NCBI GenBank assembly: GCA_001792535.1
Contig: MGGS01000001.1
Coordinates: 1 to 47,694 of the forward strand
Reading direction: 5' to 3'
Length of the DNA stretch: 47,694 nucleotides
From: Candidatus Woesebacteria bacterium RIFCSPHIGHO2_02_FULL_42_20
GTDB lineage: Bacteria; Patescibacteriota; Microgenomatia; UBA8517
Made by a program: the position numbers and the translations under genes
Part shown: in pieces, positions 27,043 to 43,422 of the stretch
How the letters are laid out: each line of letters begins with the position of its first letter
Numbering within the stretch: position 1 is the stretch's first letter
The notes under the pieces: model-generated
The model's input: only the letters and a program-made list of their open reading frames with translations
The model's database searches: none
Told to the model about the DNA's origin: nothing

Positions 27043-28329
27043 ATGGATATAGTTGTAAAAGGTGGGCAGACGTTAGCCGGTGAGGTTACGCCTTCCGGAA
27101 GTAAGAACTCCGCAGTTGCCATTATACCCGCTACCGTTTTATTTGATAAACCAGTAAAACTTACTAATATTCCGGATATCACCGATGTGGCTTCTCTGGT
27201 CGACATACTTCGCGGTTTCGGTTCCAAAATAAAGTGGGATAAGACCAAAAAAATAATCGATATAGACAATAAAAATTTATCGTTTGAGAAAGTGGATTCC
27301 GAGTCGCTGGGTAAGATGCGCGGAACGTCACTTCTGTGGGGGCCAATGCTCATGCGGTTCGGTAAAGTTAATTTTGGCCAGCTCCCCGGTGGTTGTACTT
27401 TGGGTTTCAGAACTCTGTCTCCGCACTATAAAGCGCTTGAGAGCCTTGGAGTGCAAGTTGCTAATCGCGGAGATGGGGTTGTGATGGATGCCTCGCACGT
27501 TGTGGCTGGTACTGTATGGATGAGTGAAATGAGTCCGACGGCGACAGCAAACGTTATAATGCTTGCGACTGGACTTTCGGGGGTAACAAAGATAGTAGGT
27601 GCGGCCAGTGAACCCCAAGTACAGGATTTATGTAACTTTTTAGCTTCGGCGGGAGCAAAGATTTCCGGAATTGGCTCAAGCGTCCTTGTTGTCGAAGGAG
27701 TCAAAAGTTTAAGTTCGGTAACACACGATATTTTAAGCGATCATTATGAAATTACGACATTTTTAGCTATGGGTGCGGTCACCGGTGGAGAAGTCCGAGT
27801 AAAAAACGCCACGCCTGACTATTTCGGCTATATTAATCAGGTCTTTAGCAAGTTTGGCATAGTGATTTCCTATGACGGTGATACGGCGGTTGTCAAAAAA
27901 GGCCAGAAGGTCGCGCTAAAATATGAAGAAGGCAGAAATTTAATGACTGTCAAGGCACAGCCTTGGCCGGGGCTTCCGGTAGATACATTGCCGCTTTTTA
28001 TTCCGATAGCTTTAACGGCAGCGTCAGGACACGTCTTGTTTCATAATTGGATGTACGAGGCCGGGCTTTTCTGGACTTCCCAGCTGACCAAACTTGGTGC
28101 AAATATTGTGATGGCAGATCCCCACCGTGTTATTGTGCTCTCCGGAAGTAAACTTAAAGGGGCAAAAATGGAAGCACCTTATATTATCCGTGCTACTGTC
28201 GCTATGGTGATGGCAGCAATGGTTTCCCAAGGCGATTCGGAAATATTAAATGCCGAGGCCCTTTATCGCGGACACCCTCATTTTGCCGAAAACCTCAAAA
28301 AATTAGGCGCTTCGATCAAAGAAAAGTAA
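27043..28329 (+). CDS. murA: UDP-N-acetylglucosamine 1-carboxyvinyltransferase
   Basis: SGSKNS, LPGGCTLG.R (active-site Cys), AASEP, RG near the C-terminus; TATAAT at 27020-27025. Confidence 0.95.
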   Translation: MDIVVKGGQTLAGEVTPSGSKNSAVAIIPATVLFDKPVKLTNIPDITDVASLVDILRGFGSKIKWDKTKKIIDIDNKNLSFEKVDSESLGKMRGTSLLWGPMLMRFGKVNFGQLPGGCTLGFRTLSPHYKALESLGVQVANRGDGVVMDASHVVAGTVWMSEMSPTATANVIMLATGLSGVTKIVGAASEPQVQDLCNFLASAGAKISGIGSSVLVVEGVKSLSSVTHDILSDHYEITTFLAMGAVTGGEVRVKNATPDYFGYINQVFSKFGIVISYDGDTAVVKKGQKVALKYEEGRNLMTVKAQPWPGLPVDTLPLFIPIALTAASGHVLFHNWMYEAGLFWTSQLTKLGANIVMADPHRVIVLSGSKLKGAKMEAPYIIRATVAMVMAAMVSQGDSEILNAEALYRGHPHFAENLKKLGASIKEK

Positions 28330-29750
28330 TGAAATTAACCGATCTTCTTAAGGGTATAAAATGCGAGGTCTTTGGCGGAAAGGATATTAATATAAGTGCC
28401 GTTACGCCGGATTCCAGAAGGGTAAAAAAAAATAGTCTATTTGTCGCTGTTAAGGGCCTCAATGTTGATTCCCATGAATTTATAGATCAGGTTATTGAAA
28501 AAGGTGCGGCAGTTGTTGTCGGCGAGGTAAAGCCGGCTGCCGATTGGCTTGGCAAGATTACATATGTCAAAGTGGCTAACTCAAGAAAAGTACTTGGCTG
28601 CCTTGCAGCTAACTGGTTTGGTAATCCTTCGCGGAAGCTTGCTGTCATTGGGGTAACAGGCACAGACGGTAAGACTACTACCTGTAATTTTATTTATTCG
28701 ATTTTAAACTTTTCCGGTCACAAAACAGGGTTGGTGACGTCGATTAACGCGAAAATTGGAGACAAAAGCCTAGACACAGGTTTTCATGTCACAAATCCTG
28801 AGCAGTTGGAACTTCAAAAAATTTTAAAGCTGATGGTTGATGCAGGCTGCGAGTTTGCAGCTATTGAAGTTACCTCGCACGGACTTGACCAGGAAAGGGT
28901 TGCCGGAGTCGGGTTTAAAGCCGGGCTAATTACCAATGTTACCCACGAGCACTTGGATTACCACAAAACTTACGATAGCTATCTTTTAACTAAAGCGAAA
29001 TTAATGACGATAAGTGATTTTGTGGTTTTGAACAAGGACGACGGTTCATATAGAAAACTTAAAAGAATGGCTCCCGCAGACCATCTTACCTTTTCCATTC
29101 ATGACAACTTCTTGGATAAAAAGACGAATGAGCATTTGGCCCAACTGTTCCCCGGAAACTACAATGTCATGAATGCTTTGGGCGCGGCAGTATTGTGTCG
29201 AAAGTTTAGTATCTTGGACGAGAATATTAATTCAGGTTTACGGGCAATCAGAAAAATCCCAGGGAGATGCGAGAAAGTGGGTAACACGAGAGGTATAAAA
29301 CTTATAGTCGATTTTGCTCATACGCCGAATGGCTTAAAAAGCGTTTTGGCTGTGCTTAAGGCAAGCAGTCAAGGCAAACTTGTTTGTGTATTTGGTTGCG
29401 CTGGTGAAAGAGATCTTTTAAAAAGACCCTTAATGGGTGAGATATCCTCGAAGCTTGCAGATGTTACTGTATTAACTGCCGAGGACCCGAGATATGAGGA
29501 TGTTGACCGGATAATTGCCCAGATAAAAAAAGGGGTAAATGCCAAAAGTAAGGTTATCTGTATACCGGAACGAGGGGAAGCAGTTTGGTATGCTATAAAT
29601 AAAGTTGCCAAGTTAGGCGACACAGTTGTCATTTGCGGCAAAGGCCACGAAAAGTCGATGGCCTATAAGGGGATAGAATACCCTTGGAGTGACCGCAAAG
29701 CGGTCAAACTGGCCTTGGAGGGTAAAATATTTAAGGTAAATCATGGTTGA
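28329..29750 (+). CDS. murE: UDP-MurNAc-tripeptide synthetase MurE
   Basis: DSRRV, GVTGTDGKTTT, EVTSHGL.Q.R, EHLDYH, DFAHTP, FGCAGERD..KR..MG, AEDPR, GKGHE. Confidence 0.93.
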   Translation: MKLTDLLKGIKCEVFGGKDINISAVTPDSRRVKKNSLFVAVKGLNVDSHEFIDQVIEKGAAVVVGEVKPAADWLGKITYVKVANSRKVLGCLAANWFGNPSRKLAVIGVTGTDGKTTTCNFIYSILNFSGHKTGLVTSINAKIGDKSLDTGFHVTNPEQLELQKILKLMVDAGCEFAAIEVTSHGLDQERVAGVGFKAGLITNVTHEHLDYHKTYDSYLLTKAKLMTISDFVVLNKDDGSYRKLKRMAPADHLTFSIHDNFLDKKTNEHLAQLFPGNYNVMNALGAAVLCRKFSILDENINSGLRAIRKIPGRCEKVGNTRGIKLIVDFAHTPNGLKSVLAVLKASSQGKLVCVFGCAGERDLLKRPLMGEISSKLADVTVLTAEDPRYEDVDRIIAQIKKGVNAKSKVICIPERGEAVWYAINKVAKLGDTVVICGKGHEKSMAYKGIEYPWSDRKAVKLALEGKIFKVNHG

Positions 29751-30809
29751 CATGCAAACTGCATTTGAAAGCGCGCCGAAAGTTAGTGAAAGAAGTACTT
29801 TAAATAGTAGGTTGGATCGGGAGTTGTCAATACGCGGAATTGGTCCTGAAAGTGCGGAGAATAAAGGAAACGTGATGATTCCAGCAATACCGGATAAGCC
29901 TGCGGTTAAGCCTGGTAAACAAGCAGAGTTTATTGAGTCAACAAAAGACACTTTGACCCAATTAGGTATAAAACACGATGCAAAAGCGTCCGTTAAAAGA
30001 ACAGTATTATCTTTCAGGGAAAATGTTCCATCTGAAGTTAACCGACGTGGACAAGACCAAGAGCTGCTATTTTATGACTTTGGTGATCCGGAAGCCATGA
30101 GCGAACCGGCTAAAAATATAGGGGTTCCCTTGGTTGTTTTTAGCCACGGCGGCAAAATTCATCCCGAGGTAATTGCCTCGTCAGGCTATTTGACTATGCT
30201 CCAAAAACATAATCCGAATATGCTTTTGTGCGCAGTTGATCATAGAGGATCGCAGTCTCACGATGTAAAAGTTGACTACGGCTTAGACGACAGGGTTGCA
30301 GATATATAGTTGCAATGAGATATGCAATGGGTGCTTTAGTAGAGGAGTATGAAAAGCAAGGAATAAGATGGAATGGAAAATTAGTCTTGATTGGAGACAG
30401 TATGGGTGGCGAGGTTATGTCTGTAGTATCTGAAAAGCTTTTTCCGGATGGAGTTATCCTGACCGAACCAGCGGCATATTCTGTATATGCACATCATGTA
30501 AAGTTTGGGAAAAGACATAATGAAGAGCCGGTATTCGGAGGTGATGATGGCGTGATTCGGAGTCGTAAACCCGATGACTCTTTTGCTCTAGAGTCGATTG
30601 GAAAATATATGGGAAAAACCCCCAAAGGAAAAGTGCTTGTCGTTGAGTTTGCTAGCGATAGAATTGTTGGTAAAATACCACAAGACTATAAAGCAAGTGC
30701 AGAAGTAGTTGATTCTATTAGAACGAGTCACCTTTTAACTAAAGGAGAACATGGTGCTACTCCAGCAGAAGAGGTGGAAACAATCAAGAATTTTGTTAAG
30801 AGTTTGTAA
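29743..30809 (+). pseudogene. Alpha/beta hydrolase split by a frameshift at about 30301-30309
   Basis: The 5' ORF has FSHGG and VDHRGS; the 3' ORF has GDSMGG, D and H; removing one AT from GATATATAG joins the two frames. Confidence 0.7.
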
Positions 30810-30810
30810 G

Positions 30811-31602
30811 ATGAAATATTTTTATTCGCCAACAAAAGCAGACTATTCAAAATATTTGTTCCCATATCAAGTTTATTTAATTAAAGAGGAAGCTGATAGC
30901 GCTGAAGAGATTTATGCCAAAGGGTTTCTTCCGGTCAGAACGATTTACGATTTGTATTATTTAGCTAGAAGCACCAGAGTTGATTTGGGTAACTTTGAAT
31001 TGTCGAGCGAAAATAGAAGAATACTTCGTAAGGTAGAAAATTTTTATTTCGAAGTTAAAGATATAGATAAGTTTAAGTTGGACGAGAGTGCCCTTAAAAT
31101 AATAAGGCAGTTTGCAAAGTCCAAATTTGATAAGGCACTTTTGAAGGATTCATCCTTAAAAAAGATTTTTTCGGTACTTGGTAACTATAACAAAGTTGCC
31201 TGTTTTTCGGACAAAATAGGCTTGCAAGGCTTGGCTGTTCTTTGTGTAAACGGGAAAACAGTTCACTATGCTCATCCATTTTATGCCATTGATGAACGAT
31301 TTAAGGACCTGGGGTTGGGGATGATGACATCTGTTGTTGATTGGGCAAGCGCGTCTTCCAAGAAGTATGTATACCTGGGGACAGTTTATGGTAAAAGTTC
31401 ACTCTATAAAACTCAATTTAAAGGTTTTGAATTTTTCGACGGCGTTGGCTGGTCTATTGACATTGGAAAATTAAAAGAGATTATTAAACTTGAAGAAGGA
31501 AAGTTTTCAGGCCATCTTTTACAAAACAAGAGTCATATTAAAAAATACTATAATTTCCCGAGTCTGACTAGACTTGTCAAAAAACTCAAATATGAACTCT
31601 AA
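30811..31602 (+). CDS. ATE1/Bpt-like aminoacyl-tRNA-dependent transferase (GNAT-like fold)
   Basis: RV....F.LS...RRILRK, FY......LG, YVYLG......LYK..F...E.....W pattern shared with bacterial arginyl/leucyl-tRNA-protein transferases; start at ATG 30811. Confidence 0.65.
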   Translation: MKYFYSPTKADYSKYLFPYQVYLIKEEADSAEEIYAKGFLPVRTIYDLYYLARSTRVDLGNFELSSENRRILRKVENFYFEVKDIDKFKLDESALKIIRQFAKSKFDKALLKDSSLKKIFSVLGNYNKVACFSDKIGLQGLAVLCVNGKTVHYAHPFYAIDERFKDLGLGMMTSVVDWASASSKKYVYLGTVYGKSSLYKTQFKGFEFFDGVGWSIDIGKLKEIIKLEEGKFSGHLLQNKSHIKKYYNFPSLTRLVKKLKYEL

Positions 31603-32914
31603 GAAACCGTGGGTTCACTTCATTGCCATTTGCGGGACAGGGATGGGAGCAGTTGCAGTTGTTCTCAAAAGCAAAGGTTATAGAGTAACAGGCTCAGACA
31701 TAGATTTTTATCCACCCATCAGTGATTTGCTCAGAAAAACCGGTGTGAAAATTGAGACAGGTTTTGATGCAACAAGGATAAGCTCCCAGATAGACATGGT
31801 GGTTATCGGCGGAAGTGCTTTGATTGATGACCGAAACAACCCCGAATTTGTGCAAGCCAAAAAACTTAAACTTCCCATCAAAACCTATCCAGAGTTGATT
31901 GCAGAGTATGTAATTAGGCCGGAGTCAATAGTCGTAGCCGGAACGTACGGTAAAACAACCGTTTCGGCTATGATTGCTTGGGTGTTTAAAAATATGAAAG
32001 TTGACGCAAGTTATTTTGTCCCCGGGATTGCAGTTGACTTGCCAGAGCCGATTCATTTGGGTGAATCAAGTTTTTCTGTTGCCGAAGGAGATGAATATCC
32101 GGCGGCAGTTTTTTTTGATAACGAGTCAAAATTTATGTTTTATAAGCCTAAATTCGTGATTTTAACTTCTGTAGAGTGGGATCACTTTGACGTCTTCCCA
32201 AAAGAAAAAGATTATATCCAAAGATTTGTTAATCTTATGAAAATTGTTCCCAAAGACGGGTTGGTAGTCGCGCCAAGTTCGGGCAAAAACGTTGAGAAGG
32301 TACTAGGTTTTGCCGGCTGTAAAGTAGTTCGTTTCTCAAGTGACAATTTTAGTGAGCAACTCCAAGTAATTGGCAGACACAATAGGGCAAATGCCGCGGG
32401 AGTTTTTACTTTACTTTGTGAATTGGGTTTTCCCAGGGAAGACATAATCAAAGGTTTATCGAATTTTAGAGGTGTCAAAAGAAGATTGGAAGTAATTTAT
32501 AAAGACAAAAACCTTGTAGTAATAAATGACTTTGCCCAGCACCCATCCCGACTTAAGGCCTCAATTGACGCAGTAAGAGAAGAGTATAAGAAACGCCTGG
32601 TCGTGGTTTTGGACCCACACGCGTCGATATTTAAAGACCCGACTATTCTAAAAAAACTTAGTACTGTGTTTGACAAAGTGGACGCTTTATTCATACTAAG
32701 GCTGAAACTTTTAAAAGGTCGCCATAAAGTCACTGGTCCTTTGATAGTTAAAGCAAGCGGACTTTCGGATGTTAAGACTAAATACATTCCCCTTGATGAG
32801 GATTTAGTAAAGGAACTTCTTAACCAAGCCAAAAAAGGAAATTGCGTTATCATGTTTTGCTCAAGCGGGGGGATAGATTCGCTGATCCAAAAATTTGTGG
32901 CTAAATTAAAATGA
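31592..32914 (+). CDS. mpl: Mpl-like (MurC family) UDP-MurNAc ligase
   Basis: HFIAICGTGM, GSD..FYPPIS..L, AGTYGKTT, EGDEY..VFFD..SKF..Y, EWDHFD, GVKRR, DFAQHP; these look closer to Mpl than to MurC. Confidence 0.75.
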   Translation: MNSKKPWVHFIAICGTGMGAVAVVLKSKGYRVTGSDIDFYPPISDLLRKTGVKIETGFDATRISSQIDMVVIGGSALIDDRNNPEFVQAKKLKLPIKTYPELIAEYVIRPESIVVAGTYGKTTVSAMIAWVFKNMKVDASYFVPGIAVDLPEPIHLGESSFSVAEGDEYPAAVFFDNESKFMFYKPKFVILTSVEWDHFDVFPKEKDYIQRFVNLMKIVPKDGLVVAPSSGKNVEKVLGFAGCKVVRFSSDNFSEQLQVIGRHNRANAAGVFTLLCELGFPREDIIKGLSNFRGVKRRLEVIYKDKNLVVINDFAQHPSRLKASIDAVREEYKKRLVVVLDPHASIFKDPTILKKLSTVFDKVDALFILRLKLLKGRHKVTGPLIVKASGLSDVKTKYIPLDEDLVKELLNQAKKGNCVIMFCSSGGIDSLIQKFVAKLK

Positions 32915-33615
32915 AGCTGAAGAATTTCCCAAAAACTTATAAGCTCTTGCAGGAGTATTTACACCTTACTTTCGGCAACGCCGATATCGCTTGTCCATAT
33001 TGGATAAACAAGCTTAACCAACACATCCGCGGACCGTTTTCGGGCAAGGGAACACCAAAGCAGATAAAAAAATCGGCTTTAACTCGTGCTTTAAAGCGGA
33101 ATATAAATTTAGCCAAGCTTAGTAGAAGGCAAATACTTATTTTTTTGAGACAAAACAGAATCGGTGTTGACTGTTCGGGGTTTGTTTATAATTTGGCAAA
33201 TTACCTGGACAAAGAAAAAGGTGGAGAGGGCCTTGCCCGCAAACTATTTAACAAAAAAATTTTCCCCCGTTGGAACCCAGCTTGGCGTACAAGTGTGCAG
33301 ATACTCACAAGTAATGCCAAAACTAGAGAAATAAAATTGTCAGATATCCGAGTAGGCGACCTGATCAGATTAACAAGCGGAAGGCACGTTTTGTTTGTCA
33401 TAGACGTCACCGGGAAATATATTACCTACGCGCATTCATCGAAGTTTCTCACTAAAAAATCTGGGGTCCATTTGGGAAAAATAAAAGTAACTGACCGGTT
33501 AAAAGGTTTAGAAGACCAGCTCTGGCTTGAAAAGACTCCGAAAGGAGAAAGTTTTGGTAAAAAATATTTTGATCCCAGCCAGGGCGATTCTCTTCGAAGG
33601 TTTAATTGGTGGTAA
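32911..33615 (+). CDS. NlpC/P60-like (C40) cysteine peptidase, no signal peptide
   Basis: GVDCSGFV, GDLI, HV, AHSS catalytic pattern; very basic protein. Confidence 0.75.
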   Translation: MKLKNFPKTYKLLQEYLHLTFGNADIACPYWINKLNQHIRGPFSGKGTPKQIKKSALTRALKRNINLAKLSRRQILIFLRQNRIGVDCSGFVYNLANYLDKEKGGEGLARKLFNKKIFPRWNPAWRTSVQILTSNAKTREIKLSDIRVGDLIRLTSGRHVLFVIDVTGKYITYAHSSKFLTKKSGVHLGKIKVTDRLKGLEDQLWLEKTPKGESFGKKYFDPSQGDSLRRFNWW

Positions 33616-33617
33616 AT

Positions 33618-33770
33618 TTACTTCTCTTCCTCTAAAATCTCGATTTTGAGCGGCTTTTTAGAGAGCAGCTCACACTCGGCGCCGCAGTTCCCGCATTCAA
33701 TAATTTCTCCAATGGCGGCGTCCCTGGGAATGACTAAATCAGTTAAGCAATCGGGACATTTGGTTTTCAT
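33618..33770 (-). CDS. LysW-like zinc-ribbon small protein (50 aa, absent from the ORF track)
   Basis: Manual translation MKTKCPDCLTDLVIPRDAAIGEIIECGNCGAECELLSKKPLKIEILEEEK; CPxC...GE...CxxCGAE.E.....PL pattern of LysW. Confidence 0.85.
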   Translation of the reverse strand: MKTKCPDCLTDLVIPRDAAIGEIIECGNCGAECELLSKKPLKIEILEEEK

Positions 33771-33786
33771 AAGTTATACTATAACA
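33771..33786. promoter_or_regulatory. Putative bidirectional leaderless promoter
   Basis: 16-bp spacer AAGTTATACTATAACA; TATACT (+) 6 nt before ATG 33787 and TGTTATAGT (-) 7 nt before ATG 33770. Confidence 0.65.
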
Positions 33787-34632
33787 ATGGATTACGAAGA
33801 AGGCAACACACCTATCAGGCAAATCAATGGTGTGTATTACAAATTGGAAACGGCCAACCCCACCGGGTCGGTTAAAGACAGAGGCATTTCTTTTCAGGTT
33901 TGGAAAGCAATTGGTACCGGCTTTAGTAAGTTTTGCATCAGTTCGTCCGGGAACGCCGCGATATCAGCGGTAACGTATGTCGGCTTGGCAGGCGGAACCT
34001 TGGATGTTTTTGTGAGCCGAAAAATTAATAAAGGCAAGCTTAAAAAAATAATCGGCAAAGACGTAAAGGTTCATTTCAGCCAAAAAGCAGTTAGCGAATG
34101 TATGCAGTTTGCCCAAAAAACGAATGCATATAATCTTCGCGCCTCCCAGGATCCCAATGGCTGGGTAGGCTACATGTCTGTTGCTTACGAGCTTGATTTT
34201 AAACTTGGTAAGTTAGGTGCAGTTTTTATTCCCGTTTCCAGCGGTACACTGTTTTATGGCGTGGCGCGCGGTTTTGACAAAATTGGCTATTTACCTACGT
34301 TGCATGCCGTACAAACTCCATATTGCAACTTCATTGCGAGCAAATTTGATAAAGATTTTAAACCAAGCCAGAGTAGTCTTGCCGACGCGCTGGTTGCAAA
34401 AACAACACCTTTAAAATCCGGTGTAGTTTCTTTGATTAAAAAATCCAAAGGTTTTGGTTGGGTCGTGTCGGATAATGAAATAAAAAAAGCTTGGGTGGAG
34501 TTATACGGAAAGGGTTTGGATACGTCATACGAAGGCGCGGCTTGTCTGGCCGCATACCGAAAAGCGCTCGGCAAGAAATTTAAGGTAAAAGAACCAATTG
34601 TTTGCTTAATTACTGGAAGATATTACGGATAA
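33787..34632 (+). CDS. PLP-dependent fold-type II enzyme (threonine synthase/cysteine synthase-like)
   Basis: KLETANPTGSVKDRG (PLP Lys), SSSGNA, PVSSGTL, SLADAL, ITG; probable start at ATG 33787. Confidence 0.85.
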   Translation: MDYEEGNTPIRQINGVYYKLETANPTGSVKDRGISFQVWKAIGTGFSKFCISSSGNAAISAVTYVGLAGGTLDVFVSRKINKGKLKKIIGKDVKVHFSQKAVSECMQFAQKTNAYNLRASQDPNGWVGYMSVAYELDFKLGKLGAVFIPVSSGTLFYGVARGFDKIGYLPTLHAVQTPYCNFIASKFDKDFKPSQSSLADALVAKTTPLKSGVVSLIKKSKGFGWVVSDNEIKKAWVELYGKGLDTSYEGAACLAAYRKALGKKFKVKEPIVCLITGRYYG

Positions 34633-35562: not shown

Positions 35563-36216
35563 ATGGAAGCAGCCGAAAATATAACTGCCGGTCAGGTTGG
35601 CGTGCCGCCTGTTGGTCCGGATAGGGCCGCTAAACCAGCGGCTGACAAAAAGTCAACAATCTTAAACTGGCTGATTGTTTTTGTGACCGTTACACTTATC
35701 GTTGTTTTATTCACAATAGCCGTACTGGCCTTAAGAGCGCCGGAAACTGTCAGTGTTGATGAGGGTGACGCTTTTTCGACACCAGAATTAATTGAGGAAT
35801 TGGTTAAGAAGTTTGAGCAAACTGCTCCGAGTTCCCAGTATTCCTTGGGTGATCTTGGTGCCGAAGTTACGACCCTCATTTCTCAAAGTAAGACTAGCTA
35901 TATTTTCTCACCCAACGGAGAACAAGAAGTACGGACCGGTAATTTGGACGACGGCTTTGTTTCAAGTCTGCTTGCCGGTATAGAATATAAAGTGATAGGG
36001 GAAGTGGAGGAAGACGGTTTCGTTAAAGTGTCGGCAAGCGGGACAGCAAGCGACTTCGAAGGCTTTTATGTCTTTGAAGTAGACGACCTTACCGGACAGG
36101 TCTTGGCCGTTTCTTTGTCTGTCGTTTATACTGATGCAGTCGGGAGTCCGGTTTCCGGTACTTTTAACTTTACCTATGAACTGCCAGTCGATGGTGAAGT
36201 GCTTGGTGTAACTTAA
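35563..36216 (+). CDS. Hypothetical single-TM acidic surface protein
   Basis: Pro/Ala-rich N-terminus, one TM segment, D/E/S/T-rich ectodomain. Confidence 0.75.
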   Translation: MEAAENITAGQVGVPPVGPDRAAKPAADKKSTILNWLIVFVTVTLIVVLFTIAVLALRAPETVSVDEGDAFSTPELIEELVKKFEQTAPSSQYSLGDLGAEVTTLISQSKTSYIFSPNGEQEVRTGNLDDGFVSSLLAGIEYKVIGEVEEDGFVKVSASGTASDFEGFYVFEVDDLTGQVLAVSLSVVYTDAVGSPVSGTFNFTYELPVDGEVLGVT

Positions 36217-37242
36217 TTAAAATAAGCTTTCCTTAATTTGCGCCCGGATTTGGGAGAAGTTAGCGTTTCCAGCCTTTGGTACGAGAATGAATTGGCCGCC
36301 GGGTCCCTTCGAATTACTGAGCACGTTGTCGGTTGATAAATTGAGCGTATTGATAGAATATTGATCTGGGTCAAACTTTAAAGCGGTTAATTCAACGATC
36401 AATTGCTTGTCGATATCTGTCTTTACACTTTCGCTTAGTTTGTCGATGATATTGTTCGCATTAGTCAGTACGCCAAGACTAATTAGTTTGTTTTTTATCG
36501 CGGCTAAAACGTCAAATTGTCGAAGACTGCGCGCAAAATCTCCGCCGTATGAGTCCGAGTGGCGTGACCTGACGAATTTTAATGCAGTCAGGCCATCCAT
36601 AGTGTTTTTACCTTGGTCAAAGTGTAGATGTTCGTATCGGCATGTAAATTGTTTTTCGAGTTCAAAACCTGAAAATTCTTCGTGAAACTTGGCAATCTCC
36701 TCGCCCGAAAACCCGCAGGTATCGTTTTCAAGCCCTTTTACGGGATAAAAGTAATCGTCGAAGGTGACCGGGACGTTAACTTCGATTCCGCCCATAATAT
36801 CGATAATTTCGACAAACCCTCCAAAATCGACAGATGCAAAATAGTCTACGGGCATGTCAATCATAGTACTTACAACGGACTTAATTAAGGGGCCTCCACC
36901 GGTGGCATAGGCATTGTTTATTTTAAAGTCGTTTATCCAAAGGTCTCTTGGAATGGAAGTAATCAATACTTTTTTGGTTTCTTTATCGATACTTATAAGA
37001 ATTATCACATCACTTAAATTTCCTCCCGAATGACCTTCTCCGCCATAACCAAGAAGCAAAACATTCACAGGTCGCTTTTGTTTTTCAGTTTTTTCGAAGA
37101 TGTCGGAAGTTACGGGAATCAGTTCGGGTTTGGAGGGAACTAAACTATTTGAGATTTTGGCAAACAAGTAACTACCTGTGAGCAAAATTAAAAAGAGAGC
37201 TACTGTGGCACCGATTAAAATAATTTTTTTCTTCTTGGTCAT
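36217..37242 (-). CDS. LCP (LytR-CpsA-Psr) family wall-glycopolymer transferase
   Basis: N-terminal TM, NVLLLG, SDVI, SIPRDL, KINNAY, ALKFVRSRH, DFARSLRQ. Confidence 0.93.
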   Translation of the reverse strand: MTKKKKIILIGATVALFLILLTGSYLFAKISNSLVPSKPELIPVTSDIFEKTEKQKRPVNVLLLGYGGEGHSGGNLSDVIILISIDKETKKVLITSIPRDLWINDFKINNAYATGGGPLIKSVVSTMIDMPVDYFASVDFGGFVEIIDIMGGIEVNVPVTFDDYFYPVKGLENDTCGFSGEEIAKFHEEFSGFELEKQFTCRYEHLHFDQGKNTMDGLTALKFVRSRHSDSYGGDFARSLRQFDVLAAIKNKLISLGVLTNANNIIDKLSESVKTDIDKQLIVELTALKFDPDQYSINTLNLSTDNVLSNSKGPGGQFILVPKAGNANFSQIRAQIKESLF

Positions 37243-37294
37243 CAGCTTTAAAGTTTACACGAGCTTGAATAAGTTTGCTAGAATACTAACTACT

Positions 37295-38404
37295 ATGGTA
37301 AATACTATCAAATGTAAGTACTGCGGAAAAGATATTGAGATCTCCGAGGCTTTGACTCACGAGGTTCAGGCTAAAATTAGACAAGAGCTCGAAGTAGAGA
37401 TTGAAGAAAAGGTAGGCAAACGGGTAAACGAAGAATATGAACTAACTCAAAAACAACAGCAGAAAGAAATAGCCGAAACAAATTTACGCAACAGGAAGCT
37501 TCTTATACAGATCGAGGAACTGATGGACCAGATGCGGCTTCTTAAGACCAAAGACGAAGAGCGTGAAGTTGAAATGAGAAAGAGGCTTGCAGAGGCGCAA
37601 GAAAAAATTAAACAGGCCGCAGTTGGTGAAGCAGAAGAACGTCACAAACTTGATGACAGGGAAAAGGACAAGAAGCTTAGCGATGCCCTTGCTCAAATAG
37701 AAGAACTCAAGATTAAAATCCAACAAAAGTCCGGGCAGCTTCAAGGTGAAGTATTGGAACTTGATTTGGAAAATAATCTTAAAGTCGCTTTTCCTGAAGA
37801 CGAGATTACTCCCGTAGGCAAAGGTGTTGCCGGCGGGGACATTGTACAAAAAGTTAAAAACCGCGCAGGTAAGATAGCCGGGACAATTATCTGGGAAACG
37901 AAGCGCGCCAAATGGAGCCGGTCGTGGTTACCCAAACTTCGTGGGGACACCAGGTCCGCAGGTGCTACTCTGGCTGTTCTGGTTTCGGAAAATTTACCTG
38001 CGGATATAGATACTTTTTCGGTTGTGGACGGGATACTTGTCACAAGTTACAAATATGCTCTGTCGCTTGCCTCTCTACTCCGCCGATCGGTGATGCAAAT
38101 TGCTTCAGCAAAATTTTTGGCGTCCACAAAAGTCGAAGACCTTCAAATTTTACACGAATATCTTCAAAGCGATGCTTTTAGGCACAGGTTCGAGGCGTTT
38201 TTCGAAGGCGTAAAAGCAATGGAGGAAGATTTGATGGGCGAAAAGCGCTCCATGGAGAGAATTTGGAAAAAGCGAGAGGTGCAAATTAGAAAATTGGGGG
38301 GAAGCGCTTCGAATATGTACGGTGAACTCCAAGGGATTATGGGAAAAAGCTTGCCAGACATTAAAAGTTTGTCGCTGGATTCCGGAGATAATGAAAATGA
38401 CTGA
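37295..38404 (+). CDS. DUF2130-domain protein
   Basis: IKCKYCG..I.ISEAL, coiled coil, QLQGEVLE, GGD, IIWETKR...W..KL..D; start at ATG 37295. Confidence 0.8.
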   Translation: MVNTIKCKYCGKDIEISEALTHEVQAKIRQELEVEIEEKVGKRVNEEYELTQKQQQKEIAETNLRNRKLLIQIEELMDQMRLLKTKDEEREVEMRKRLAEAQEKIKQAAVGEAEERHKLDDREKDKKLSDALAQIEELKIKIQQKSGQLQGEVLELDLENNLKVAFPEDEITPVGKGVAGGDIVQKVKNRAGKIAGTIIWETKRAKWSRSWLPKLRGDTRSAGATLAVLVSENLPADIDTFSVVDGILVTSYKYALSLASLLRRSVMQIASAKFLASTKVEDLQILHEYLQSDAFRHRFEAFFEGVKAMEEDLMGEKRSMERIWKKREVQIRKLGGSASNMYGELQGIMGKSLPDIKSLSLDSGDNEND

Positions 38405-39879: not shown

Positions 39880-41169
39880 ATGTCCAAGCCATTTTTCTTT
39901 ATTTCCTCTGATCCTTTTAGGGCAGTTGGCTTGGCACTATTTACAAGCGATTTTGTCTTGATATGCGAAAAGCACTCTTACGTTGTTGACTGGCTAAGCC
40001 GTCGGGGAATAAAGGCTTTGGTTTTAAAATCTAACTACAACAACAGCGGCAAAATTCTTGCGGAAGCGAAAGTGGGCAAATTTATTTCAGATTACTCGGG
40101 CGGTATCACTCCCGAAATTTTGGTGTTTAAGCCATCTGCAAAAATTGACTTACTAGCCAGAAACAAAGGCTATAAGTTGCTTGCCAACAGTGCGGTACTA
40201 AATAAAAAGTTCGAGGACAAGACAAGTTTTTATAAACTTTGCCTTGACAATAATCTGGAAGTTCCAAAAGGGTTCGTAGCTAGGTTTGGGGAGGTCGATT
40301 TCGAAAGAGCTAAAAGTAAATTGGGTTTACCTCTTGTAATTCAATTCGGTAGGGGTTGGGCAGGCGGAACCACTTTTTTTATAGCCAACGCCAAAGATTA
40401 TTTGAGTCTTCAAAAGAAATTCCATAAGACCAAGGTAAAGTTTTCACAAAAGGTCGAAGGTATTACTGTCCTTAATAATGCGTGTATTACAAGTGATGAT
40501 CAAGTATTGGTTAGTCAGCCCGCCATTCAATTGTCAGGTGCGCTCTTTGGCCAGAGTGAAGCTGTGACTTTCGGTAGGCAATGGGGTGGGAACTTAATAC
40601 CCGACGAGCAAGAGGCTAGAATTGCCACAATCACCAAGAAGGTAGGACACATTATGGCGCAAAGCGGATATAAAGGCTGGTTTGGCTTGGATTTTATACT
40701 AAGCACTGACGGAGAAGTTGTACTCTCTGAAAACAATGCCCGGCTGACTGCTTCCTTTTCTTTTTATACGCAACTTGAGGTATTAAACGGATCTGATGTC
40801 ACTTTGTTGGCGAGTCACATAGCCGCTTTTGCCCAGAGAATAGCTGGTAGTTGGCATGTTCCTAAAGTGGTTGGCTCTCAAATTAGCTTGAGAACCGGCT
40901 CGCGAGGAGAAAAAGTTGTTAAAAAAAGTTTGCAAGCAGGTATTTATGGCCGTGATCTTAAATACAGGCGCGACGGGGTAGGTTTGGTGGATTTAACCGA
41001 TCAAAGCGAAGTTTTTATTAACTTTCCGGATTACGGCACTCTATTGCCGCAAAATAGTCAGCTGGTCACTATTGAAACTCGTAACCAAGTGCTTAAGAAT
41101 GAGCATAATGTTTACCCTTGGCTAGCTAAAGTAGCAAAGTATACGGAAAGTAATATACTTTATGAATAA
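39880..41169 (+). CDS. ATP-grasp fold ligase of unknown substrate
   Basis: FEDK..F..L...NLEVP, PLVIQ...GWAGG.T, Q.VEG, GWFGLDF, ENNAR (ExN). Confidence 0.8.
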   Translation: MSKPFFFISSDPFRAVGLALFTSDFVLICEKHSYVVDWLSRRGIKALVLKSNYNNSGKILAEAKVGKFISDYSGGITPEILVFKPSAKIDLLARNKGYKLLANSAVLNKKFEDKTSFYKLCLDNNLEVPKGFVARFGEVDFERAKSKLGLPLVIQFGRGWAGGTTFFIANAKDYLSLQKKFHKTKVKFSQKVEGITVLNNACITSDDQVLVSQPAIQLSGALFGQSEAVTFGRQWGGNLIPDEQEARIATITKKVGHIMAQSGYKGWFGLDFILSTDGEVVLSENNARLTASFSFYTQLEVLNGSDVTLLASHIAAFAQRIAGSWHVPKVVGSQISLRTGSRGEKVVKKSLQAGIYGRDLKYRRDGVGLVDLTDQSEVFINFPDYGTLLPQNSQLVTIETRNQVLKNEHNVYPWLAKVAKYTESNILYE

Positions 41170-41863
41170 GAATGTTGTTCTGATACATGGCTGGGGTTCT
41201 TCGACTTTGAAGTTGGATAAGCTGTCAATGGACTTGGAAGAGCTTGGTTGGCAAGTGTTGTTACTGCCACTTCCCGGCTTTGATTTACAGCCTCCAAGTA
41301 CAGTATGGGGAGTGAAAGAATACGCCGACTACATTTACAAAGAGTCGTCAAAATTTTTTAATGGGTCACACTTTGTTGTCTTTGGCCATTCATTTGGGGG
41401 TAGAGTGGCAATTAATATTGGCGCAAGAAGGTTACCTGCTACCGAGGGAATTGTTTTGTGCGCAACTTCGGGTGTTTCAAGAGGAAATAAAGCTAAAAGG
41501 TTTGTATTTAGCACACTTGCCAAATCTGGCAAAATTATTTTGGGTAAGAGGCCGAGAAAACTCTTTAAGAGCTTTCTTCATAAACTTTCCCGTGAGCATG
41601 ATTATGAAAAGTTGGAAGGGGTAATGAAAGAGATTTTTAAAAAAGTGGTAGCCTACGACTCACTACCAGAAGTCAAGAAGATTAAAGTGCCCGTTTTCAT
41701 TATTTGGGGGGATAGTGACCGTATGACACCTTTGGCTGACGCAAAGAAACTAAAATCTTTAATCGGCCGTTCTAAGCTGTACGTTTTTAAAAATTTGGGT
41801 CACACCTTGCCTTACGTACGGCCAAAACAAATTGCAAAATTAATTGACCAATGGAAAATATAG
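41162..41863 (+). CDS. Alpha/beta hydrolase
   Basis: IHGWG, LPGF, GHSFGG, IWGDSD..TP, GH. Confidence 0.92.
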   Translation: MNKNVVLIHGWGSSTLKLDKLSMDLEELGWQVLLLPLPGFDLQPPSTVWGVKEYADYIYKESSKFFNGSHFVVFGHSFGGRVAINIGARRLPATEGIVLCATSGVSRGNKAKRFVFSTLAKSGKIILGKRPRKLFKSFLHKLSREHDYEKLEGVMKEIFKKVVAYDSLPEVKKIKVPVFIIWGDSDRMTPLADAKKLKSLIGRSKLYVFKNLGHTLPYVRPKQIAKLIDQWKI

Positions 41864-43422
41864 TTGATTTGGTAATAAAACTAGTCCTTATTGCCCAGAT
41901 AGTTTACGAGTCTCTTGTCATTACCTATTGGGTGCAGCAAAAAGAATATCGTTGGGACAGATTTAGAAGTTTTGTTAAAAGCAGGGAGGGACTGTTTACC
42001 CTTAATGTTCACTTTATAGCCGCTAAAGTTGCTTCGTTGTTTTTTTTGCCGTTTTTAATTTCTCTGATTATTGTCGGCTTTATCCTATTAGTTTACTTAG
42101 ACAAGATTAGGACGAAGGGTCTTACAAGGCCAATTTTTACTTTAAGAGCAAGAGAGGTCTACTTGACCCTAGTTAGCCTTGCGTTTTTGGCGAGTGCCGT
42201 CGGCAGTATTATCTTTGCTCAGTTAAGCCTGCTCATTTCGCCCATCATTGGTGTTTATTGGTCGGGTCTCCTTGTCAGGCGAACACTCAGAAAGGAAGTT
42301 TTACAGGCAGAAGCTGTTTTTAGAAATGTCAAGCCAAAAGTTGTTGGAGTCACGGGCAGTTATGGCAAGACTACAACTAAGGAATTTATTGCTACCCTAC
42401 TTTCACGAAAGTATGTTGTTGCCAAAACAAGAGGTGGAGAAAATACTCTTTTTGCTATAGTTCGCACAATTATCCATAATTTGCCCGGCAGCACTCAAGT
42501 TTTTGTTGTTGAGATGGGCGCCTATAAGCGGGGGGAAATTAAACACATAACTGATATAGTTCGACCAACTATAGCAGTCGTGACCGGTATTGAACCTCAG
42601 CACTTGGATCTGTTTGGGTCAATTAAAAATATCCAACTGACCAAATACGAACTTATAGAAAGTTTGGGAAAAGGCGGCGTTGCCGTCCTGAATTATGGCA
42701 ATAGTTATTGCAGGCAAATAGGGCAGTGGGCAAAAGAAAGCGGCGTAAAAGTTTTAAGCTATTGCCTTGGCCCAAGACAGAGAAGTCTGGCTGTGGATTT
42801 GTCTGCCCGAGTTTTGGAAATGTCGGGCAAGGGTGTAAAGGTTGAATTTGATTATAAAAATAAAAAGAAAACACTTGAATTTAAATTTGCTGGAGCGCAT
42901 TTTGTCGAAAACGCAATGGCGGCAATATTAGTCGCTTTTGTGATGGGATTAGACTGGAAAGACGTGGGTAAAGTGAGCGATGAACTATCCACATATGAGA
43001 AAACTATGAAGGTATATAAAACAAAAAGCGGGGCGACTATAATTGATGATTCGCACAACAGTACTCCCAAGGCCTTTGAAGCGGCACTAGCGTATCTTGA
43101 CGAGTTTCAAGGAAGAAAAACTGTGTTCACGCCTGGAATTATTGAATTAGGATCTGTTTCAGACAAAGTTCATACTAGGTTGGGTAAGCTATTGGCTTCA
43201 AAGGTAGACGAAGTAGTTTTGACAAGAAAAGGATTCGAGTCGGCACTAAAAAAGGGCCTTGGAAGCTCCGTTAAAATACTTAAGATTTCTGATGGGAATC
43301 CTAATTATTTAAGCGAGTTGTTTAAAGAAAGTGCTACTCAAAAAGGTATTATTATTTTATTGGAGGGAAAAATGCCTAAGGCGATTTCATATCAATTGGA
43401 GAATCTTGAAACAGATGTTTGA
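41851..43422 (+). CDS. murF: MurF with N-terminal membrane domain
   Basis: About 4 N-terminal TM segments; GVTGSYGKTTTKE, VEMGAY..GEI, QHLDLFGS, IIDDSHNS.P, TPGIIELG. Confidence 0.88.
   Translation: MENIVDLVIKLVLIAQIVYESLVITYWVQQKEYRWDRFRSFVKSREGLFTLNVHFIAAKVASLFFLPFLISLIIVGFILLVYLDKIRTKGLTRPIFTLRAREVYLTLVSLAFLASAVGSIIFAQLSLLISPIIGVYWSGLLVRRTLRKEVLQAEAVFRNVKPKVVGVTGSYGKTTTKEFIATLLSRKYVVAKTRGGENTLFAIVRTIIHNLPGSTQVFVVEMGAYKRGEIKHITDIVRPTIAVVTGIEPQHLDLFGSIKNIQLTKYELIESLGKGGVAVLNYGNSYCRQIGQWAKESGVKVLSYCLGPRQRSLAVDLSARVLEMSGKGVKVEFDYKNKKKTLEFKFAGAHFVENAMAAILVAFVMGLDWKDVGKVSDELSTYEKTMKVYKTKSGATIIDDSHNSTPKAFEAALAYLDEFQGRKTVFTPGIIELGSVSDKVHTRLGKLLASKVDEVVLTRKGFESALKKGLGSSVKILKISDGNPNYLSELFKESATQKGIIILLEGKMPKAISYQLENLETDV

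Follow-up and report, generated by a model that had tools for sequence, protein, structure and literature searches.

In LysW/AmCP carrier systems, an ATP-grasp enzyme, LysX or ArgX, attaches the amine of the substrate to the gamma-carboxyl of the terminal Glu of an EDWGE motif. To our knowledge, every carrier described for this chemistry ends in a glutamate, which protects the amino group of the substrate. In the CysO/CysM pair, the C-terminus of a small protein delivers a reactant to a fold-type-II PLP enzyme, and the epsilon-amine of lysine is acylated by ATP-grasp ligases such as PylC and the D-aspartate ligase of Enterococcus faecium. As for D-glutamate, Xanthomonas is devoid of both MurI and the transaminase and is reported to rely on MurD2 and the ATP-dependent epimerase MurL (PMC8788868).

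We analysed a stretch of 47,694 nucleotides, hereafter called the window, from Candidatus Woesebacteria bacterium RIFCSPHIGHO2_02_FULL_42_20 (contig MGGS01000001.1). It is a peptidoglycan region coding for a PBP, MurA, MurE, a MurC/Mpl-like ligase, MurB, a MurF-like ligase, FemAB, MraY and FtsW, and it also harbours a DegT gene. The features discussed below, including a LysW-family protein that we call the carrier, are the following.

28329-29750, plus strand: MurE, DAP-type model above cut-off
30751-31602, plus strand: 283-residue protein weakly similar to arginyl/leucyl-tRNA protein transferases (E 8.6e-7)
31574-32914, plus strand: MurC/Mpl-like Mur ligase, with equal murC and mpl scores, both under cut-off
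32911-33615, plus strand: 234-residue protein with a GVDCSGF motif (NlpC/P60-like by motif), ending 3 nt from the carrier stop
33618-33770, minus strand: carrier, a LysW-family zinc-ribbon protein with a terminal Lys (LEEEK), assigned by Pfam match and codon pattern
33771-33786, no strand: 16-nt spacer between the divergent start codons of the carrier and PLP genes, defined by sequence
33787-34632, plus strand: threonine-synthase-like, fold-type-II PLP enzyme of 281 residues, divergent neighbour of the carrier
39880-41169, plus strand: ATP-grasp ligase of 429 residues, proposed loader, with orthologues located next after the PLP gene in most other genomes
41162-41863, plus strand: alpha/beta hydrolase, overlapping the ATP-grasp and MurF-like genes
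41851-43422, plus strand: MurF-like ligase, the best murF match of the genome (224 bits, cut-off 288.6)

The carrier resembles LysW/ArgW of Thermus, Sulfolobus and Thermococcus in zinc-ribbon fold, family, small size, acidic character, flexible acidic C-terminal tail and proximity to an ATP-grasp gene. However, those proteins end with EDWGE/Glu, work with LysX-type ligases and serve amino-acid biosynthesis, whereas here we find a terminal Lys, a ligase that is not of the RimK/LysX type, a cell-wall context, a PLP partner that would need a free alpha-amine and no reductase (LysY) partner. CysO/CysM-type pairs likewise combine a small carrier protein with a fold-type-II PLP enzyme, but CysO is ubiquitin-like, has a GlyGly end and carries sulfur as a thiocarboxylate. 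PylC and the D-aspartate ligase perform the epsilon-amine chemistry that we propose below, but on free lysine or wall precursors rather than on a protein tail. The MurD2/MurL system is similar to ours in occurring in genomes devoid of MurI and D-amino-acid transaminase, beside a MurD-type ligase, and in consuming ATP, a property owing to which a route of that type can be one-directional.

The carrier gene and its subfamily

The carrier ORF (stop included) encodes 50 residues, MKTKCPDC...CGNCGAEC...LEEEK, with two CxxC motifs (C5-x2-C8 and C26-x2-C29) and a fifth Cys at position 33, in full agreement with a preliminary description of this DNA made from the letters alone. The fifth Cys is not conserved, being Ile or Val in the two closest homologues. 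Comparison with the gene of a same-genus genome (G001) revealed 9, 6 and 38 differences at codon positions 1, 2 and 3, respectively, over 150 coding bases, with 27 synonymous and 12 non-synonymous codon changes, and the summed differences in 182 pairs of related genes are 1653, 846 and 3804. The ORF is a genuine gene under purifying selection and not a chance occurrence. An identical protein is present in public protein collections, with PF21344 precomputed there, and some public sources label its relatives 'lysine biosynthesis protein LysW'. On the plus strand, a longer ORF (33646-34632) overlaps the carrier gene, but it is just the PLP reading frame left open upstream of its conserved ATG start codon at 33787.

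The HMM search proposed in the preliminary description identified the carrier as a true LysW homologue, matching Pfam Zn_ribbon_LysW (PF21344) with 37.1 bits (cut-off 27, E 2.4e-9), although it remains below the NCBIfam LysW cut-offs (45.6 versus 75 for NF041070 and 29.6 versus 53.2 for TIGR01206). With a profile of the lysine-ended subfamily, the best solved match is Thermus LysW (3wwl, E 1.2e-13), followed by the Thermococcus (5k2m) and Sulfolobus (3vpb) LysW proteins. The best match is thus LysW itself and not a generic zinc-ribbon regulator, the outcome that had been regarded as damaging.

We searched 1.84 billion representatives exhaustively with HMMER, which yielded 603 matches at E values up to 1e-3. 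Among the best 150 of these 603 representatives, 65 end with xEK (46 of them with EEEK), 9 with another K, 6 with DWGE and 70 otherwise; the search profile was generated from four lysine-ended proteins, which biases the ranking and leaves the positions where proteins end unaffected. We also performed a DNA-pattern scan with one genome per species, which returned at least 119 stretches; for 80 of them, nearly all from Patescibacteria MAGs, the loci are listed, and all 80 harbour an EEK-ended ORF. The tails of Patescibacteria proteins vary (EEEK, IEEK, LVEK, YVQK, MIQK and DEGK), only the terminal Lys being constant, and the folded LysW domain is conserved throughout the subfamily. Since the lysine-ended tail is conserved among homologues, the loss of conservation that would have spoken against the preliminary description is not observed, and the subfamily forms a large branch of the LysW family in its own right, marked by the lysine end. 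Full-text literature searches, with supplements outside their scope, returned nothing on a lysine-ended LysW or on the gene module described below.

Partner genes of the carrier

The succession of the carrier gene, a divergent PLP gene and an ATP-grasp gene recurs in 29 loci of a 401-genome sample of the phylum and in 40 wider loci. Among 32 loci with a lysine-ended carrier, the PLP gene is found within six genes in 31 and the ATP-grasp gene in 23. In the 80 listed loci of the pattern scan, the PLP gene is divergent and within 400 nt in 72 cases, with ATP-grasp and MraY genes in 61 and 54 loci, respectively. Three of the eight listed loci without a PLP gene have the carrier at the locus end, and the other five (L081, L116, L120, L134 and L148) are truly devoid of it there. 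In some loci the carrier and PLP genes are together and the ATP-grasp gene is several genes away. Among 61 close relatives of the window's genome, the carrier and strong PLP matches co-occur in the same three and nowhere else.

LysW genes of the same phylum with DWGE or DWGQ ends are found near genes for LysX-type ligases, a class-III aminotransferase, ArgG and an ArgH-like lyase, and one canonical DWGQ locus (L057) harbours two LysX-type genes. Tabulating the neighbours of EEEK-ended homologues, another step suggested at the outset, therefore separated lysine-ended carriers, beside PLP, ATP-grasp and mur genes, from DWGE-ended ones beside their canonical partners. Judging from gene order, the carrier, the PLP enzyme and the ATP-grasp ligase are a conserved module built into peptidoglycan-precursor (mur/dcw) gene clusters.

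The module is also found outside the CPR, in at least two high-GC metagenome contigs. In one (L193), the genes for the carrier, a Mur ligase, the PLP enzyme and the ATP-grasp ligase are on one strand; in the other (L196), the PLP gene is divergent from the carrier gene, which faces an operon coding for a MurD-like ligase, NlpC/P60, GLUCM-like_C and D-Glu_cyclase proteins. The two D-glutamate-cyclase-family genes of that operon (PF07286 and PF14336; L196:10638-12387), which also contains the NlpC/P60 and MurD-like ligase genes, were seen at this locus only. In L081 and L148, from Moraniibacteriota and Paceibacterota MAGs, the carrier gene adjoins murD and the expected ThrC-like gene is missing; L148 has MraY, a D-aminoacylase-like gene, a 300-residue-protein gene and murD in succession.

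The PLP enzyme, whose PLP lysine and SSGN loop are conserved, is the sole PALP protein of the window's genome (1.08 Mb, 98% complete). Its nearest relative is threonine synthase (6cgq, E 5.8e-37), with fold-II serine/aspartate racemases as near relatives (about 1e-25) and a weak similarity to SbnA and cysteine synthases. Its best score against the ThrC equivalog is 129.1 bits for a cut-off of 301, and it lacks the N-terminal approximately 50 residues of ThrC, the alignment starting at model position 55 to 81. The spacer that it shares with the carrier gene contains the palindrome GTTATA-C-TATAAC (33773-33785), which provides -10-like boxes on both strands, placed as for leaderless transcripts; the -35-like boxes fall inside the opposite genes, all of these boxes being consensus matches only.

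In the window, the ATP-grasp gene is 6 kb from the carrier gene, whereas most other genomes have it immediately after the PLP gene. Genes for a DUF2130 protein (37178-38404), a family-less 217-residue protein (35563-36216), UbiA and LCP are located between the PLP and ATP-grasp genes, an interruption of the module found in this genus only. The preliminary description had designated the ATP-grasp protein as the candidate loader, and its synteny with the carrier in 61 of the 80 listed loci supports this; that description underrated the divergent PLP gene, which is the nearest partner, and the cell-wall context. Against Pfam and solved structures, the syntenic ATP-grasp proteins match ATPgrasp_ST or ATP-grasp_3 weakly and give no LysX or RimK match. 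They are remote from all solved ATP-grasp enzymes, with PurK, CPS, biotin carboxylase and BesA at E 4e-6 to 4e-4; the similarity to the gamma-glutamyl ligase BesA, at E about 1e-4, is likewise remote.

Prediction of a complex of the carrier, the ATP-grasp ligase and ATP gave a median ipSAE of 0.43 (best control 0.01), which weakly supports their interaction. Of the solved complexes, 58 of 80 attain this mark, as do 2 of 110 mismatches, but only 7 of the 80 and both mismatches do so at 0.60 or under. At least 72% of contacts are shared between runs, and the partner pLDDT is at least 79. The calibration is rough, as custom alignments and a ligand were included, and likeness to solved LysW-enzyme complexes may contribute. 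ATP-grasp paralogues (170-235 bits) in five carrier-less genomes of family f1 are not module members and belong to another operon type; those at L197-L200 (genomes G034, G027, G032 and G016), some of 746-793 residues, adjoin a gene for a second protein of ~440-460 residues, a ligase pair distinct from that of the module. A 626-residue ORF at L094 matches both the ThrC and ATP-grasp models with both parts truncated, and we set it aside as a fusion because misassembly or a frameshift may have created it.

D-glutamate as the putative product and alternative roles

Of the 31 module genomes, 2 have Asp_Glu_race (MurI), versus 165 of 370 others (Fisher 1.3e-5, a figure that is not a probability because kin are not independent, and with the unpublished genome G212 among the 370). 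The 31 module genomes are those in which the lysine-ended gene was seen, with the PLP gene beside it in 30; the contig of the remaining one (G131) ends first. Aminotran_4, the D-amino-acid transaminase family, is present in 4 of the 31, and 26 harbour neither MurI nor Aminotran_4, both of which are also missing from 173 of the 370 module-less genomes. The module and MurI are both present in G180 and G329. In families f60 and f85, MurI is present in the member without the module and missing from most members with it, but in the family of the window none of five sampled module-less genomes has MurI. Given the latter result and the 173 genomes without both routes, some of the MurI bias could be due to lineage effects or to scavenging. 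Ala_racemase_N shows no comparable bias (16 of 31 module genomes versus 138 of 370 others), and we rejected the module as a replacement for alanine racemase. The clusters of G110 and L148 each code for a homologue of D-aminoacylase and N-acyl-D-glutamate deacylase (for G110, E 1.5e-73 and 7.3e-65 to the two enzymes, respectively). Together with the murD genes beside the carrier gene, the D-glutamate-cyclase-family genes of L196, the racemase kinship of the PLP enzyme and the Xanthomonas precedent, these distributions indicate that the module probably supplies or inserts the D-glutamate of the wall.

We consider it reasonably likely that the LysW-like protein is a carrier or a substrate protein of this cell-wall module. 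With slightly less assurance, our best overall explanation is a lysine-tailed LysW-family carrier of reversed polarity that takes part in the D-glutamate route of wall synthesis. We propose the reversed polarity on two grounds: no residue of the tail other than the terminal Lys is invariant, and a PLP enzyme needs a free alpha-amine. In this scheme, the ATP-grasp ligase would use ATP to link the epsilon-amine of Lys50 to an amino-acid carboxyl, most likely that at the gamma position of glutamate, leaving the alpha-amino-acid end of the cargo free for epimerization to the D form by the PLP enzyme. A cysteine amidase (NlpC/P60-like) or a D-aminoacylase-like hydrolase would then release D-glutamate, or the tethered residue might be passed to the Mur ligases. 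D-glutamate is a plausible cargo at best, and the epsilon-amine of the terminal Lys is a somewhat more doubtful attachment site, a D-aminoacylase neighbour being a better fit with an amine-linked cargo. The proposed racemase role is weakened by the closer kinship of the PLP enzyme with threonine synthase than with racemases. If the scheme holds, the lysine-ended branch and its PLP enzyme follow a mirror image of LysW logic, with the carboxyl end held and the amine free, and provide the first tie between the LysW carrier family and cell-wall synthesis. It would also bear on the ways in which numerous ultra-small Patescibacteria devoid of glutamate racemase, some of them devoid of MurD, obtain and insert D-glutamate.

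Alternatively, the terminal Lys or the acidic tail might be the site at which the module makes or tailors another wall unit, such as the position-3 diamino acid, some D-amino acid that is not glutamate or a side-chain or cross-bridge residue. The absence of Asd, and so of a DAP pathway, in spite of a DAP-type MurE would agree with such a role, as would the weak resemblance of the PLP enzyme to SbnA and cysteine synthases, which catalyse beta-replacement, the presence of FemAB and DegT genes in the window and the co-orientation of the ATP-grasp gene with the MurF-like gene there; we also reason that the Glu-Lys end of the tail resembles the end of the MurF substrate. However, the linkage across lineages is to murD or the murD slot rather than to murE or murF, glutamate is indicated by the homologues of D-Glu cyclase and N-acyl-D-Glu deacylase, and alanine racemase is not anticorrelated with the module. 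We therefore regard this alternative as rather unlikely.

A little less likely still is that the zinc ribbon serves the ThrC-like enzyme as a regulator or a non-covalently bound subunit, replacing its missing N-terminal domain, with the tail docking electrostatically. The start of the window's PLP enzyme within the ThrC model would leave room for it, and the carrier and PLP genes are the tightest pair, even where the ATP-grasp gene is several genes away. Yet a longer PLP orthologue with an N-terminal extension (G110, 343 residues) is still paired with a carrier, the homology is specifically to LysW, the ATP-grasp gene co-occurs in most loci, and an invariant residue at the extreme C-terminus marks a reactive end, as in LysW.

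The carrier could also be imagined as a ribosomal precursor, RiPP or cofactor-like, whose C-terminal residues are cut off to yield a small molecule, since it is small, has a conserved C-terminus and is encoded beside genes for modifying enzymes and a cysteine peptidase-like protein; the conservation of the LysW domain throughout the subfamily, the lack of a radical-SAM enzyme or other usual maturase and the housekeeping wall-synthesis context make this very improbable.

Finally, the PF21344 match and the public LysW names might suggest an ordinary LysW/ArgW amino-group carrier for the synthesis of lysine or arginine whose tail has drifted, an idea to which we give almost no credence given the lack of EDWGE, the unmet equivalog cut-offs, the partner ligase not of the LysX type, the canonical neighbours that DWGE-ended carriers have and lysine-ended ones do not, and the absence of Semialdhyde_dh (LysY/ArgC/Asd) from all five module genomes searched (14 of 14 controls positive). 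As no LysY/ArgC/Asd-type enzyme was found, and as the PLP enzyme remains below the ThrC cut-off in a genome devoid of an Asd-type enzyme, and so of a supply of O-phosphohomoserine, the module, by its gene content, is not one for lysine, arginine or threonine biosynthesis. The earlier claim that the protein is not a standard lysine-pathway carrier thus stands.

MurD-positive and MurD-less architectures

In type A genomes, murD is directly beside the carrier gene (7 of 7 tested), and it adjoins the carrier gene in 19 of the 80 listed pattern-scan loci. A search of nine type B/C genomes (G000, which is that of the window, G001, G054, G168, G123, G403, G216, G098 and G146) returned no MurD above cut-off, whereas MurD is present in 46 of 61 relatives of the window's genome. 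The latter, although 98% complete, codes for three Mur ligases only: MurE, the MurC/Mpl-like ligase and the MurF-like ligase. The MurF-like gene corresponds to MurLig523, which we had considered as the Mur ligase of the module and rejected, since the carrier-adjacent ligase elsewhere is MurD, absent from this genome.

All 15 type B/C loci code for the 234-residue GVDCSGF protein and 13 for the 283-residue tRNA-transferase-like protein. In G146, a 695-residue ORF (L046:10189-12273) fuses a MurC-like ligase (residues 3-445) with a homologue of the 234-residue protein (residues 457-689). This gene content suggests that, in type B/C genomes, the module together with the 234- and 283-residue proteins also replaces MurD. 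It is conceivable, though improbable, that in MurD-less genomes D-glutamate is made and kept on the terminal Lys of the carrier, extended or handed over by the 283-residue and NlpC/P60-like proteins, and joined to UDP-MurNAc preformed. Such a protein-tethered start of the stem peptide would amount to a carrier-protein-templated substitute for both MurI and MurD.

The 234-residue protein matches no Pfam or NCBIfam family, and a BLASTP comparison with the Pfam-positive NlpC/P60 protein of G110 aligns the Cys motif alone (E 0.037); its 'NlpC/P60-like' label therefore rests on that motif. Two family-less ORFs (188 and 164 residues; 29743-30809) lie between murE and the MurC-like gene. The alpha/beta hydrolase gene is beside the module in this window only.
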